Source: a virus
Taxonomy: Duplodnaviria; Heunggongvirae; Uroviricota; Caudoviricetes
IMG/VR virus record: IMGVR_UViG_2681813318_000003
Strand: one strand, 5' to 3'
Length of the DNA stretch: 64,000 bases
The first letter of the stretch is position 1, and each line of letters begins with the position of its first letter. Below, one piece after another: positions 5,733-38,766 of this stretch. Below the pieces are notes generated by a model. The model made no database searches, was not told the DNA's origin, and saw only the letters and a program-made list of their open reading frames with translations. A program made the position numbers and the translations under genes.

Positions 5733-6316
5733 ATAAACTCCTGAATCAATCGCCGCGCCGATTTTTTTTCCTCGCGCGTGCGCACACGCGTGCGTGTTAA
5801 TAATTATTAAAATAAACAAATTACTTCCCAGAACAGGTTTTTATAAACCTGAACTGAACGAACGAAGTGAGTGAAGTTCACCTCGAACGAAGTGAGAGGT
5901 TGTCTTTTCAGGTAATACTCTCCCAGGGAGGTGAGTATAAAATTCCTCACCAACCTGGTCGTTTCATAACCTGAAAAGCTATGGTCTAAGTCTACTGCCA
6001 GCTTAGACTTGGGAAGTTATGGATGACAGCACCCCAGAACCGAGATCTTCCCACACTTTATGAAGGGGAGTACTGGATTCAACCTCTCGAAACACCCCAG
6101 ACTCGACAATCATAAAGTGACCCTTGTCTCTGCTCACTTTGGTTCCCCCTTCCCCGACACCTATACGGCACCGGTTCTACGCTGGTAGTGAGCTTTTTTA
6201 AACCTGACGCCAGTGACGCTTACCCCCACCCATCAGGTCGAGCCTCCAGTCTACGACTGGAAACTATCATATCTTAGCACTTACAATTCACTTTATGAAT
6301 AGTTTGTACTTATCTA

Positions 6317-6652: not shown

Positions 6653-6711
6653 AGCCTGCTTCCGTATATTAATAATTAATATGTAGTTATTTATATATAC
6701 AGAAGCAGGCT
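6653..6711. repeat. inverted-repeat element (17-bp arms AGCCTGCTTCCGTATAT, AT-rich spacer), copy 1 of 2
   Basis: Near-identical element at 54331..54384; flanking GTTCTAGTGG-like sequence is also shared. Confidence 0.6.
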
Positions 6712-7357: not shown

Positions 7358-7509
7358 TTTTGCATTTGATTTTATGTCTGGCAATCAAATAAAACGCGCC
7401 AGAAATGCAAACGAGAAGCTCTCTGGCGCGTTTTTGTGGTGCTGGGTATGTGATTGGCTTACCCAGCACTATAAAGCTCTCTATGGGCTTTATTTTCAGT
7501 AGGGGGACG

Positions 7510-8319
7510 TCATCCAATAGTGTACTCCGCTACAAACTTCTTAACGATCGGTGATTCTTCGTTCAATGTTAGATTTCCACCGTCTCTAACGGCAATTCCT
7601 GTCGCTGGAAATACAGCCATCATTTGCCCAGCCTGAGTTGACGCAGTGTTAAGCGGATACGGTTTTTCTGGATTGCTCATTAAAGCAATCTTAATACTAT
7701 TACTTGTAGCCTTCTTTTCTGTGAGAAGGTGTCTCATGGAAATTACCGTGTAAACACTAATATCTGGACCTCCGCTAAACCAATTAAGAAGGTTTAATAT
7801 CTTATCCTTTGCTTTGACAGGCGCGTTTTCGTAAGTGTCTAAGAAAATATCTTTTTCTAAGCCTGCTTTATTGAAAAACAAATCATCTTTATCACTTAAA
7901 GTAAAACGAGGACCTCTTGCAGTACGAGCTTTTTTATTTGTATTGCTATCATTTGACTGTTGAACTTTTAATTCATCATTAACCTCAACACACTCTTCAA
8001 CCTCAATAAACCCCAATTGTTCTGGCTCGTTTTCGGCAGATTCAACACTTTCAGCCTTAATTACGTTTATAGGCTCATGAGCTAACTCCAACTCATTTAA
8101 AGCGGAGCTGAAATCACCTGCTTTTTCTTCATTGAACAGTTCTTCGGCAACATCATCAGAACTCATGGCTACGCCAGCATCGAGGCCGAGAAGCAGATCG
8201 TCAATATCATCAGTATTTTCAACCTGTGCAGCTTTTTTTACTGGTTCATCAAGTGATTGCAACATGGCTGTCAGCTCATCCAGATCATCATTTGTCATTA
8301 CATTTTCAACCGAACTCAT
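7510..8319 (-). CDS. hypothetical protein with strongly acidic N-terminal region
   Basis: 269 aa; first ~110 aa are dominated by Asp/Glu; AGGAG upstream of the start. Confidence 0.55.
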   Translation of the reverse strand: MSSVENVMTNDDLDELTAMLQSLDEPVKKAAQVENTDDIDDLLLGLDAGVAMSSDDVAEELFNEEKAGDFSSALNELELAHEPINVIKAESVESAENEPEQLGFIEVEECVEVNDELKVQQSNDSNTNKKARTARGPRFTLSDKDDLFFNKAGLEKDIFLDTYENAPVKAKDKILNLLNWFSGGPDISVYTVISMRHLLTEKKATSNSIKIALMSNPEKPYPLNTASTQAGQMMAVFPATGIAVRDGGNLTLNEESPIVKKFVAEYTIG

Positions 8320-8479
8320 GTAAGTCTCCTTCTGTTTAGTTGCATTTGCGTTTCGATGGCTACATTTTGACTAAACCTATCAGGCGGAAAAGTATTAAAT
8401 ACAGGCAGGAAATGATTGAAAGGCGACTGTTCTTTAAAAGAAAGCCTGCTTCAAACTCTCTTTAAAGCAGGCTTTTGTT

Positions 8480-9037
8480 TTACACAATTTCAGAGGGTAA
8501 TTTAAAAAATCCGTATTTATTACGTGCCTTAAAGAAGCATTGCATCATTAAGTTTGTGTCATATAAGGCACTATGTGCTTTGGCATGATCGTATATAAAG
8601 CCAAGAGAGAAGGCCAATTCTTCAAGGCGAGGACGTTTACCGTCTTCTGTGGCCCACAATCCCGATAACATAGTATCTATAACAGGAACTTCTGGCAGTC
8701 TTACTCCATACCCTGAAAACTCGTGTCGAATAAATGGTATATCAAACGCTTCGCCGTTATGAGCAATCCACGCACTACATGCCCCCATATAAGCGCCAAT
8801 TTCGCTGGCATGATTTGACAACAAAGGTTCAGCTGCGAGCTGTTCTAATGAAATGCCATGAACGGCTTGAGCTTTCGGATCTATGTTTCTGCGAGGGTTA
8901 AAACGCATCTCCAGACTATCAATATGTCTCTGTGTCTCCAGTTCATAGCGGGTAATTGCGATTTCAATAATTTTATGACCAGCAAGGAAATCCAGTCCCG
9001 TAGACTCGATATCGATGCCTGCAACAATCGTTGTCAT
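8480..9037 (-). CDS. DnaQ-like 3'-5' exonuclease (DEDDh family)
   Basis: Motifs DIESTGL, HNGEAFDIPF and HSALYD. Confidence 0.8.
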   Translation of the reverse strand: MTTIVAGIDIESTGLDFLAGHKIIEIAITRYELETQRHIDSLEMRFNPRRNIDPKAQAVHGISLEQLAAEPLLSNHASEIGAYMGACSAWIAHNGEAFDIPFIRHEFSGYGVRLPEVPVIDTMLSGLWATEDGKRPRLEELAFSLGFIYDHAKAHSALYDTNLMMQCFFKARNKYGFFKLPSEIV

Positions 9038-9046
9038 CAGAACTCC

Positions 9047-9466
9047 TTACAACTTCTTAGCGCCCTTAAGTAGGGCGCTACGTACAAATTGAGCCGCTTT
9101 TTTCAAAGTTTCTTCACTGGTTTCACAGACAATCGGATCTTTCCACTTACCTGACGCAGTGTTGAGAATATTGATTTGGTTGCTATCCAGACAAATAGAG
9201 ATATAAAGCACCGTGCCACCAGCCAGCATCAAATGCATAGGAAACAGAGGCTTTTTACTGTCTTCACTGAACTGAGACATGGCGATGTTAATGGCTTCAC
9301 CTACTTGTGCGCCAACAAGCCCCTGCGCAGTTTCGAATATGGCACGAATAGCCAGACGAGCCTCTCGATCGCTCATAAGCGACCGGGAATGTTCGTCCGC
9401 TACACGAATCAAAGCCTCTGTTGTTTTCCGATCCAGTTCATCTTCAAGCAACATTTCACTAAACAT
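9047..9466 (-). CDS. hypothetical protein
   Basis: 139-aa ORF in operon context. Confidence 0.5.
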   Translation of the reverse strand: MFSEMLLEDELDRKTTEALIRVADEHSRSLMSDREARLAIRAIFETAQGLVGAQVGEAINIAMSQFSEDSKKPLFPMHLMLAGGTVLYISICLDSNQINILNTASGKWKDPIVCETSEETLKKAAQFVRSALLKGAKKL

Positions 9467-9527: not shown

Positions 9528-10172
9528 CTAATGAACGGTTACTCGGCCACAGAACCGGTTTTCTATCTTTTCTACAGCGTTATCTAGCATTCTCATCACT
9601 GATCTGGCTCTTGCTTCAACCGTGCGATATCGGTTGGAAACGACGAAGGTTTGCAGATCTCCCCTTTGCGGATGCAGGTGAATTTTTGTCAGTTCCCCGC
9701 ACATCAACGCATCAATACGAGCGACATACAGACGGTCTAATGATGCTCGTTGTGATCGCAAGTAATCTCGCTCTGAGAGAGCGACTCCCGGGCGTAAGCC
9801 AGCAATGGCGTTAAAGTTTGAAATAGCAGTTTTGTGGCAAAACTTTTCGATATCGAGGGCTAACTCAATACATCGATCTTCATTGGTATGGCCGACCAAA
9901 TCCAACGTGTAGGCCATAACATCAGCAGGTGTGCGATCGATAACAAAGCCTTCAACACCACGCGTAAGTAGCTCTATATGCTTTGCTATTTCCATTTGAA
10001 TCTGAAGCCGCTCATATAGAGGCATAGACTCACCTACTCGAACACCGAGGCGGCTCATCAAACTTCCGACACCAGCATCCACGTAAGGGATTCCGTAATG
10101 TTTGTCGATATATTTAGCCAGGGTTGTTTTCCCACTGCCCTGAGCACCAGTGATCCCAATCCGGTAATCCAT
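9528..10172 (-). CDS. P-loop nucleotide kinase, possibly dNMP kinase
   Basis: Walker A GAQGSGKTT at the N-terminus; sits within the nucleotide-metabolism cluster. Confidence 0.55.
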   Translation of the reverse strand: MDYRIGITGAQGSGKTTLAKYIDKHYGIPYVDAGVGSLMSRLGVRVGESMPLYERLQIQMEIAKHIELLTRGVEGFVIDRTPADVMAYTLDLVGHTNEDRCIELALDIEKFCHKTAISNFNAIAGLRPGVALSERDYLRSQRASLDRLYVARIDALMCGELTKIHLHPQRGDLQTFVVSNRYRTVEARARSVMRMLDNAVEKIENRFCGRVTVH

Positions 10173-36657: not shown

Positions 36658-38766
36658 TCACTTTAAAATGATACGAGATAGTTCAGTAACTACAGATGAA
36701 CCAAGACTATCAACGCTCGTTACCAGGGCATGATTTGAGTAAAATCTCTCCGGTGCGTCAGTCATGATGCCAATTGCCATCAAATCAATATCAGTCTGCG
36801 TTTCAATTTGCTTCGCAACTGAACGCAAATGAGCGTCAAAACCTCTCCCAACAGCCCACGGCGCGCCATCACTCAGAACAAGCATGATCTTCCTGTCCTC
36901 CAAGCGACCGGAAAATAACGATGCAAGGCTGGCTATGCTTTCACCATCCACGTTATTAAGAAGTGGGAATGTGTAGCCTACGCACCCCATACGTGAGCGA
37001 ACTTCGCGAGAATTTACCTTTTCATTCCAATTTTTGATGATAGGTAGCATTAAAGATTCAAAGCGAGAGAACTCATACTTGACAGCCTTAAGTTCTCCTG
37101 CCGCCATATGACTACCAAATGTAGTGAAGCCGGTGATAATGTTGGGAACATTTATTCGATCAAGGGCATCTGCGATGGTATATGCACTTGCAAGAGCCAA
37201 TTGTATCGTTATACCACTCATTGAACCTGATAAATCAATCACTTGTTGAACACAGGCGTTAACGGCTTTAGATTCTTCTTTTTTACGAAACACGCGATCA
37301 TCATTCATTGCTAATCTGTAGATACTAGAACCATGAATGCGCCCCCGACGCTGGCCCGGTATAAACTGAACTCTGTTTCTGCTTGCTATTGCTCGCTCCA
37401 GGTCTTTTGCCAGCGTCGACGAAACACCTGACGAAAGATGCTTTTCAATATATTTGTCGAAGAGCTGGTTGCCTTCAGGAACGATGCGATAGCGGCTGAT
37501 TGGATATCCTCCTAAATCAATATCGGAGAATGTTTTAATAAGCCGTTTGATATGGGCTTCTGCCTGATCAATCGAGCCGATGAAGTCGTATGAGCGATTG
37601 TATGGCCTGTATTCGCTTTTCGAGCTTTCTGTTAACTCGCTTTTAATCGTTTCGGATAGAGCATCTTCTGTCATGCCTCCGACTTCATCTTCTATGCTAT
37701 CCAGCTCCTCTAAAGCCTCTTCCAGACTCATTTTTGACGGAGTTGGAATATCTGAAGAGCCGTCTTCTGTCGTTTTTCTTTTTTCGTGGTCAGCGATAAA
37801 TGATTCTGACACCGCGTTATCAGAAGCATCAGAATCTGATACCTCTTTATCATTTTCTGTATCATCGAATATTGTTTCTGATGATTCAGAATTATCTGAA
37901 TCATCACTGTCGTTATTATCATGTTTGTGCTTACTGTGTGATTCTGATTTGATAGATTTGTGATTATCTAACGCTGAGGGTGTCTCATGATCTTCGTTGT
38001 CTTCATTGTTTTCTCCAGAGGCATCCGTCTGGTCAGCGTCTGAAGGATCGGAAGTTTTTCCCGGAGCTGACTCCTTACCTTTGCTTTCACTTTCAGTGTC
38101 TTTGAGGATCTTAGCTATGGTCGCAGCCACCTTTACACAATCCTCGGTGCAAGACATGTTACGCACGGCCACATCGATACCATGTTCTTTTAATAATGAA
38201 ATTGGTTTCTCAATGACAGGCCAATATTCATCCATGAAATCTACGAACGGTGCTTGGCCATCCCAGGCTCTTACAACCGGACAGAGAAAGAAGTTTAGAA
38301 AAAGCGCGCGCTGATCTTTGCCACAATAAGCAATAGCCTCTGAAGCCTTTGGTTTAAAGACTTTTTCGATTATAAGGCGCTGAGTTGCCATCAGATTACG
38401 TCTTGTTCCGTTAAAGACCTGACCCATTTTTCGCTCGATGAACACGTCTTCTAAGGCATTCCATAGCGACCAGGAAGGAACGCGTCCTTTTTCTCTCATT
38501 TTGTTGGACACACGAATATCGGTAAACAAAATGTGAGCAACCTCATGATCGAGAAATCCGCGCACAGCATTCATCAATGCCGGTGTTGCGTTATCCGGGA
38601 TTGATGGGATGTTTACGAGAATTGGCTCTCCATCATCGTTATAGCGTACATAAGCGTCGTCCCCTCGTTCTGCAACAGGGATGTTTTTACCTGAAAGGAG
38701 AGCGACTACTCGTTTTACACTGTCACGGAAGTCCTGAACCTCTTTGATAGAACGTTTTTTAGACAT
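36658..38766 (-). CDS. von Willebrand factor A domain protein (CobT-like)
   Basis: C-terminal VWA with MIDAS DLSGSMSG; long Asp/Ser/Glu-rich central linker; immediately upstream of the CobS-like gene. Confidence 0.75.
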   Translation of the reverse strand: MSKKRSIKEVQDFRDSVKRVVALLSGKNIPVAERGDDAYVRYNDDGEPILVNIPSIPDNATPALMNAVRGFLDHEVAHILFTDIRVSNKMREKGRVPSWSLWNALEDVFIERKMGQVFNGTRRNLMATQRLIIEKVFKPKASEAIAYCGKDQRALFLNFFLCPVVRAWDGQAPFVDFMDEYWPVIEKPISLLKEHGIDVAVRNMSCTEDCVKVAATIAKILKDTESESKGKESAPGKTSDPSDADQTDASGENNEDNEDHETPSALDNHKSIKSESHSKHKHDNNDSDDSDNSESSETIFDDTENDKEVSDSDASDNAVSESFIADHEKRKTTEDGSSDIPTPSKMSLEEALEELDSIEDEVGGMTEDALSETIKSELTESSKSEYRPYNRSYDFIGSIDQAEAHIKRLIKTFSDIDLGGYPISRYRIVPEGNQLFDKYIEKHLSSGVSSTLAKDLERAIASRNRVQFIPGQRRGRIHGSSIYRLAMNDDRVFRKKEESKAVNACVQQVIDLSGSMSGITIQLALASAYTIADALDRINVPNIITGFTTFGSHMAAGELKAVKYEFSRFESLMLPIIKNWNEKVNSREVRSRMGCVGYTFPLLNNVDGESIASLASLFSGRLEDRKIMLVLSDGAPWAVGRGFDAHLRSVAKQIETQTDIDLMAIGIMTDAPERFYSNHALVTSVDSLGSSVVTELSRIILK

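Follow-up and report, generated by a model that had tools for sequence, protein, structure and literature searches.

An uncharacterized protein of SSU5-like phage-plasmids with an acidic N-terminal half and a predicted winged helix-turn-helix domain

The subject of this analysis is a gene on the minus strand (positions 7510–8319) of a 64,000-nucleotide stretch of tailed-phage DNA, IMG/VR record IMGVR_UViG_2681813318_000003 (Caudoviricetes), to which we refer as the window. Its product is a conserved, uncharacterized lytic-cycle protein of SSU5-like phage-plasmids, encoded in their replication and nucleotide-metabolism module, in which a strongly acidic N-terminal half precedes a C-terminal domain confidently predicted to be a winged helix-turn-helix. 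By analogy with Gp44 of phage SPO1, we tentatively favor a DNA-anchored protein whose polyanionic arm would engage nucleic-acid-binding proteins. An earlier description of this stretch (the original prediction) had proposed an anti-restriction DNA mimic of the Ocr or ArdA type, and its claims are taken up where the evidence bears on them.

Charge asymmetry and predicted fold

The open reading frame begins with an ATG at 8319, ends with a stop codon at 7510–7512, and encodes 269 amino acids. It is a genuine gene, because its product matches the PHROG 5235 profile over its full length (E = 6.8e-148, residues 1–269; PHROG function unknown) and has 55 homologs in which the C-terminal half is strongly conserved. 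A second profile of phage proteins of unknown function, phrog_3932, matches residues 169–265 (E = 3.7e-15). The window shares 98.7% identity with Escherichia phage Cyrano, an SSU5-like phage-plasmid of Escherichia coli LF82, and approximately 77% with Salmonella phage SSU5; CYRAN_78 and SSU5_087 are the same gene in these two phages, and both are labelled "hypothetical protein." Searches with the 269-residue protein returned no match in Pfam (E ≤ 0.1), NCBIfam, PADLOC (E ≤ 1), or BFVD, nor among PDB sequences (a single-sequence search and two profiles), and a Pfam search of 65 diverse relatives (E ≤ 0.01) likewise found no family.

The gene and the parts of its product are listed below. Two AlphaFold2 models were considered, the first built from 22 sequences and the second from a deeper alignment of 65, with confidence given as the predicted local distance difference test (pLDDT); pI is the isoelectric point.

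7510–8319, minus strand: complete gene, 269 amino acids plus stop; orthologous to CYRAN_78 and SSU5_087 and belonging to PHROG 5235
8326–8331, minus strand: strong Shine-Dalgarno sequence AAGGAG, 6 nt upstream of the start codon, read off the sequence
7945–8319, minus strand: acidic N-terminal half, residues 1–125, with 35 Asp/Glu (28%), 5 Lys/Arg (4%), and a pI of 4.05
8227–8292, minus strand: N-terminal amphipathic acidic helix, residues 10–31, beginning NDDLDELTAMLQSLDE, which holds a short motif found across the family (pLDDT ~78)
8080–8292, minus strand: acidic subregion predicted by AlphaFold2 to be helical, with amphipathic helices at residues 10–31, 36–50, 54–62, and 70–80
7939–8079, minus strand: disordered, indel-rich acidic linker, residues 81–127 (pLDDT 30–67 in both models)
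7903–7938, minus strand: basic arm NKKARTARGPRF, residues 128–139, in which homologs almost always keep R132, R138, and F139
7513–7902, minus strand: conserved globular domain, residues 140–269 (pLDDT 92–98 in both models)
7564–7755, minus strand: predicted winged helix-turn-helix core, residues 189–252 (H1, strand, H2, H3, two-strand wing)
7600–7653, minus strand: putative recognition helix NTASTQAGQMMAVFPATG, residues 223–240, in which T225, Q229, and Q232 are invariant family-wide

Residues 1–110 carry 31 Asp/Glu (28%) and 4 Lys/Arg, giving a net charge of −27; with an assumed background of 12%, the binomial probability of at least 31 acidic residues in 110 is 4e-6. The lowest net charge of any 110-residue stretch in the protein, −29, is also the lowest among the 66 open reading frames of at least 110 amino acids in the window, followed by −28 (in a CobT-like protein) and −14. 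The acidity on which the original prediction was built is therefore borne out, as the N-terminus is the most acidic stretch of the window; its description as "dominated by Asp/Glu" goes too far for a content of 28%, strongly acidic as the region is.

The acidic half is not conserved evenly. Among 18 SSU5-like homologs, pairwise identity is 54% over residues 1–32, 39% over residues 33–80, and 24% over residues 81–135, where indels are numerous (21% gap mismatches); over residues 166–269 it reaches 75%. The helix at residues 10–31 has a hydrophobic moment larger than that of 99.8% of shuffled sequences. The short motif that it contains, [DE]-hydrophobic-D-x-hydrophobic-hydrophobic-x-x-hydrophobic-[DE], occurs twice in the window protein, as ELTAMLQSLD (residues 15–24) and DIDDLLLGLD (residues 38–47). 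This motif may resemble the CheY-binding peptides FliM-N and CheZ-C as well as the VP16 activation motif, a likeness that we offer as a lead. A candidate clamp-binding motif farther along, QLGF at residues 101–104, was rejected, being unconserved among the homologs.

Residues 131–269 are neutral to basic, with a pI of 8.8 versus 4.05 for residues 1–125, a charge split that supports the DNA-anchored mechanism favored here. The predicted order of elements is helices 168–181 and 189–201, a short strand, helices 206–214 and 223–240, a wing formed by strands 243–246 and 249–252, and a final helix 257–266. Residues ~140–269 are thus confidently predicted to form a winged helix-turn-helix of ArsR/SmtB-like topology flanked by helices 168–181 and 257–266, and the arrangement α1-α2-α3-αR-β-β-α5 that defines the ArsR/SmtB fold is present in the model. 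T225, Q229, and Q232 share one face of the recognition helix (spacing i, i+4, i+7). K169, K173, and N176 are invariant or nearly so and lie on one face of helix 168–181, and Y190 is also nearly invariant; across 38–65 diverse members, all invariant or nearly invariant residues are polar and on the surface.

The closest folds to this domain all belong to transcription regulators (e.g., AntR, 6uvu; BigR, 3pqj; CadC, 1u2w), at sequence identities of 3–14%. In Foldseek searches against the PDB, made with the first model, ArsR-type regulators ranked first, none of them significantly (E > 0.1). Neither the protein nor any of the 65 relatives matches Pfam HTH_5 or HTH_20, and profiles of the domain match no PDB sequence. 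Residues 140–269 contain no cysteine and no metal-site motif, so that the Cys/His sensing typical of ArsR/SmtB proteins has no counterpart in this domain; a further difference from these regulators is the 130-residue acidic extension. The fold class is clear, yet by sequence this is a new family.

Family, gene neighborhood, and transcription unit

A profile of the C-terminal domain retrieved 639 cluster representatives among 1.8 billion, 172 of them at E ≤ 1e-10. In nearly every case the domain forms the C-terminal end of the protein (total length 210–340 amino acids), with a median of one residue following it. The N-terminal parts of 134 distant representatives cannot be aligned; they contain on average 24% Asp/Glu versus 10% Lys/Arg, and in them the acidic amphipathic motif is 16-fold enriched over shuffled sequences, usually within the first 30 residues. 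Such an early motif is what would be expected of a linear motif that binds a partner. By these profile matches, the family comprises at least 639 clusters that share one conserved architecture with no assigned function.

Of the 5,426 complete E. coli genomes searched, 204 carry the gene itself, with 207 matches in total, 205 of them plasmid-borne. It is also carried by 742 plasmids in PLSDB, 731 of which are non-mobilizable, with hosts mostly in Klebsiella, Escherichia, Enterobacter, and Salmonella. Each of the E. coli and PLSDB records listed labels it as hypothetical.

The gene lies at the end of an ordered series encoding thymidylate synthase, dihydrofolate reductase, an AAA_28 kinase-like protein, a protein of ~140 amino acids, a DnaQ-like exonuclease, and the acidic winged-helix protein. 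The part of this block from AAA_28 through DnaQ to the acidic gene recurs on a single strand in SSU5, Cyrano, Pseudomonas phage nickie, Stenotrophomonas phage BUCTxx99, and Rhizobium phage RHEph10, as well as in four metagenomic contigs, with 0 to ~10 unrelated small open reading frames between dnaQ and the acidic gene depending on the lineage. By tblastn, 83 of 85 loci encode DnaQ upstream and in the same orientation. These comparisons indicate a core gene of a conserved nucleotide-metabolism and replication block and no accessory island, which leaves little of the "anti-restriction island" of the original prediction. The two methyltransferases that were to populate it fare unequally: the Dam-like gene (PF05869, 6733–7326) does adjoin the acidic gene, but the DUF4942 protein (1088–2773) is encoded 4.7 kb away. 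The Dam-like gene is immediately downstream in all SSU5-like genomes, and only in that group.

Several observations concern the neighbors themselves. The ~140-amino-acid protein (9047–9466, minus strand; PHROG 5373) and the AAA_28 kinase-like protein (9528–10172, minus strand) accompany DnaQ in most lineages examined. One distant relative, L012, encodes an Acb2/Tad1-like counter-defense protein (PF24729; 2710–2952 of that locus, minus strand) ~400 bp downstream of the family gene, and another, L095, has two HU-like genes (Bac_DNA_binding; 2124–2700 of that locus, plus strand) between dnaQ and the family gene.

Since stable terminators close both dnaQ and the acidic gene, the latter forms a transcription unit of its own. 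The elements concerned are:

8436–8480, minus strand: intrinsic terminator after the dnaQ-like gene (hairpin and U-run; ΔG −21.3 kcal/mol, z −4.6), separating the acidic gene from the upstream operon
7383–7434, minus strand: intrinsic terminator of the acidic gene (hairpin and U-run; ΔG −26.2 kcal/mol, z −5.1)
8374–8382, minus strand: TGATAGGTT, a possible extended −10 element of a promoter belonging to the acidic gene, identical to one half of a dispersed 20-bp palindrome (see below) whose other half is absent here

A hairpin with a U-run closes dnaQ, the acidic gene, and dam alike (ΔG −21 to −28 kcal/mol, z −4.6 to −6.5). The hairpins after the dam-like (6653–6711) and dnaQ-like (8436–8480) genes have a common stem, AGCCTGCTT/AAGCAGGCT, and the 9-mer of this stem occurs five times in the window, all within 6.6–8.5 kb, against 0.67 expected. 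A scan for promoter consensus sequences yielded none that passed.

In RNA-seq data from the LF82 lysogen, CYRAN_78 has a value of 10.7, which is background; dnaQ likewise stands at 10.7, and the repressor gene CYRAN_45 at 95.8 (PMC9928086, S1 table). Such a background value in the lysogen makes CYRAN_78 a lytic-cycle gene, as opposed to one expressed in the plasmid state. Constitutive expression in the plasmid state, from a promoter of its own without the palindrome, had been entertained and is contradicted by the same data (PMC9928086). One of the few Cyrano genes that are transcribed in the lysogen lies 1.4 kb downstream of the acidic gene: CYRAN_81 (6003–6137, minus strand; 44 amino acids), which is 12-fold over local background, unlike all its neighbors (PMC9928086). 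An origin of replication at the acidic gene, by analogy with lambda O, was also considered and rejected, as the gene and its surroundings lack iterons and repeat arrays and show only a mild AT-rich dip.

The 20-bp palindrome mentioned above, ATAGGTAAGTACTTACCTAT (consensus ATA(G/A)GTAAGTACTTAC(C/T)TAT), is present in 12 copies in the window at up to four mismatches, with approximately none expected. Each copy spans 20 bp, from the following positions:

1069, 5123, 7338, 16890, 21572, 25562, 27515, 31035, 42628, 45601, 54227, and 59688

All 12 copies are intergenic, often 0–20 nt from the stop codon of the upstream gene. SSU5 and every SSU5-like IMG/VR locus examined keep the palindrome at corresponding places, among them relatives with 47% identity in the C-terminal domain, and in Cyrano it is also found inside the late structural module. 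The structural module is one tightly packed operon, with too few promoters for statistics on a late-promoter motif shared by the clade. Because the two half-sites do not covary, a DNA site bound by a protein is favored over an RNA hairpin; the palindrome is possibly a dispersed operator, a promoter element, or a centromere-like site. That the acidic winged-helix protein is what binds it is not supported.

A DNA-anchored acidic arm and its alternatives

What leads us to the mechanism favored here is the combination of a winged helix, a basic arm, a polar recognition face, a long polyanionic arm, and a terminal peptide motif in one protein. The basic arm and the ArsR-like winged helix (residues ~128–269) would anchor the protein, probably a dimer, on DNA, with contacts made through the polar recognition face (T225, Q229, and Q232) and the invariant lysines. 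Residues 1–127, in which a disordered linker follows the short acidic helices, all amphipathic, would serve as a tethered, flexible, nucleic-acid-like bait: the arm might bind the basic DNA- or RNA-binding surface of one or more partner proteins and so sequester or recruit them on DNA, and it might also fold back onto the DNA-binding face of its own protein as an autoinhibitor. A polyanionic, nucleic-acid-like role of the arm is plausible because its Asp/Glu content equals that of T7 Ocr.

The model for this arrangement is SPO1 Gp44, which has a DNA-binding motif and a flexible acidic stretch that mimics DNA and binds the β/β′ subunits of RNA polymerase, both being needed for activity; sequence similarity to Gp44 is confined to Bacillus phages (PMC8208478). 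The likeness consists in a DNA-binding module and a flexible acidic region within one polypeptide, represented here by the charge split and the predicted disorder and helices. Compared by description, the two proteins differ in several respects: the order of the domains is reversed; the DNA-binding motif of Gp44 is Xis-like and 55 amino acids long, whereas that of the window protein is a predicted winged helix of ArsR topology; and the acidic region of Gp44 contains 57% Asp/Glu and no basic residues, compared with 28% Asp/Glu in the window protein. Gp44 moreover has a third, C-terminal coil domain, and its phage is virulent and infects a Gram-positive host. To our knowledge, it is the only characterized phage protein with this design. 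The family described here is uncharacterized and new by sequence, ordinary in its fold class, and preceded in its design by a single case.

Other proteins with acidic arms operate on the same principle. The δ subunit of RNA polymerase in the Firmicutes (RpoE) joins a winged-helix-like HARE-HTH domain to a long, disordered acidic tail that behaves toward RNA polymerase like a nucleic acid. The acidic tails of single-stranded DNA-binding proteins (SSB; E. coli SSB, T7 gp2.5, and T4 gp32) recruit replisome partners and compete with DNA for the binding surface of their own protein; these are short C-terminal tips on OB-fold proteins, whereas the arm of the window protein is N-terminal, 125 residues long, and attached to a winged helix.

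A number of points weigh against the DNA-anchored arm. Even close homologs differ in the net charge of their N-terminal parts (−6 to −29), so a strong polyanion is not strictly needed. Residues 1–80 may be a small folded domain and not a flexible arm, because the deeper alignment predicts helices there at a pLDDT of ~75: for residues 10–80, the score is 50–60 in the model from 22 sequences and ~75–78 in that from 65. Winged helices also mediate contacts between proteins, and the invariant residues could belong to such a contact surface. As for a DNA target, no cognate site for the protein was found and there are no iterons in or around the gene, and the 20-bp palindrome fails to track the invariant recognition helix across lineages. 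The known acidic proteins gave no link either: the acidic region has no Pfam match to sigma-70 region 1.1 (PF03979) among 65 members, and RNA polymerase δ (HARE-HTH, PF05066) has no Pfam match and an hhalign probability of 0.07%, the latter with a manually entered δ sequence.

The original prediction shares with the favored mechanism the idea of nucleic-acid mimicry; on such a reading, the acidic half would copy B-DNA as Ocr or ArdA does and, early in infection, block restriction-modification enzymes of type I. Its appeal is easily seen: the Asp/Glu content of 28% lies beside the 29% of T7 Ocr (pI ~4), Ocr and ArdA likewise stem from phages or mobile elements and are helical, as the first 80 residues are predicted to be, the gene is a lytic-cycle gene, the Dam-like orphan methyltransferase is directly downstream in all SSU5-like genomes, and a counter-defense gene follows the family gene in one distant relative. 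We nevertheless regard it as very improbable. There is no Pfam match to Ocr (PF08684) or ArdA (PF07275) for this protein (E ≤ 0.1) or for 65 relatives (E ≤ 0.01), no match to the anti-phage defense profiles of PADLOC at E ≤ 1, and an hhalign probability of 0.1% between the family alignment and T7 gp0.3 (Ocr), and no DNA mimic is among the structural neighbors listed for the first model. Both Ocr (all-helical, its surface carboxylates copying bent B-DNA) and ArdA (elongated, with three domains) are compact dimers whose carboxylates form a fixed array, and neither has a DNA-binding domain; in the window protein, the acidic part is variable, partly disordered, and joined to a winged helix, and it is conserved neither in sequence nor in length nor in net charge. 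Aromatic residues make up 2.4% of this part versus 10.3% of Ocr. The protein, at 269 amino acids, is twice the size of the small stand-alone Ocr (~117), and its conserved winged helix would be superfluous for a free decoy of that type. Anti-restriction genes are typically patchy accessory genes; the fixed synteny with DnaQ across phages of very different hosts is the behavior of a core gene, and the Dam neighbor is missing outside the SSU5-like lineage.

Two further explanations were weighed, and we consider each of them unlikely, to a similar degree. The protein might be a sequence-specific regulator whose winged helix reads a promoter-proximal site while the acidic arm contacts RNA polymerase; it might, in a variant of this idea, be an activator of middle or late genes or the binder of the dispersed palindrome. 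The closest folds are, after all, transcription regulators without exception, and the gene forms its own transcription unit between two terminators. The annotation of Cyrano includes no phage RNA polymerase or sigma factor, and a modifier of the host polymerase or an activator is therefore needed. An invariant recognition helix would suit a promoter element conserved across the clade, and one of the 12 intergenic copies of the palindrome in the window lies 153 bp downstream of the gene. The palindrome is, however, specific to the SSU5-like group: other lineages have other recurring palindromes, yet the residues of the recognition helix are invariant. Its full site is absent upstream of the gene itself, and several other annotated DNA-binding proteins of Cyrano could equally bind it. 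We also know of no bacterial activators that feature long acidic arms.

The protein could alternatively be an accessory or organizing factor of the replisome, with the winged helix on DNA or on a replisome protein and the acidic arm contacting the phage DnaE/DnaQ polymerase, the helicase, or SSB, much like the acidic tails of T7 gp2.5, T4 gp32, and E. coli SSB. The deepest conserved association of the gene is with the DnaQ-like exonuclease and the nucleotide-metabolism genes, and its expression tracks that of dnaQ; this synteny may reflect only a gene order inherited within one large phage clade, however, and up to ten unrelated small open reading frames intervene, and a terminator separates the acidic gene from dnaQ. 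The phage encodes DnaE, DnaQ, a DnaB-like helicase, primase, ligase, and a gp32-like SSB, and none of its genes is annotated as a clamp, clamp loader, or polymerase accessory subunit; invariant surface residues would also suit a conserved partner encoded by the phage. Neither a conserved clamp-binding motif nor one resembling the SSB tip was found in the protein, and there are no origin-like repeats near the gene.

A bolder extension of the DNA-anchored arm, to which we assign a lower likelihood than to either the regulator or the replisome factor, would make the protein a "hub" throughout the clade of large DnaE/DnaQ-encoding siphophages and phage-plasmids. The winged helix would again sit on DNA, and the VP16-like acidic amphipathic motifs (e.g., DIDDLLLGLD) would capture a conserved bacterial protein, for example RNA polymerase.

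Other features of the window and significance

Two further open reading frames of the window deserve mention. The second most acidic 110-residue stretch (net charge −28) belongs to a 702-amino-acid open reading frame at 36658–38766 on the minus strand, which by its size appears to be the dimethylbenzimidazole phosphoribosyltransferase (CobT-like) gene of Cyrano. On the plus strand, a 445-amino-acid open reading frame (42682–44019) with a hydrophobic N-terminal segment adjoins a glutaredoxin gene; Cyrano has no gene of similar size annotated there, and this may be a strain-specific accessory gene. The divergent region upstream of this open reading frame contains the palindrome copy at 42628.

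SSU5-like phage-plasmids are common in clinical Enterobacteriaceae. Should the protein prove to be an ordinary regulator or replisome factor, a false anti-restriction annotation would be removed and a new winged-helix family defined. If instead the acidic half is a polyanion tethered to DNA, the family would represent a second, unrelated, and far more widespread case of the principle known from Gp44, and it would offer a tractable entry to the way in which this phage lineage controls the DNA transactions of host and phage. The hub, if it exists, would be a phage version of a eukaryote-style acidic activation domain on a DNA-binding domain, or else a DNA-tethered decoy, and would constitute a previously unrecognized mode of host takeover.

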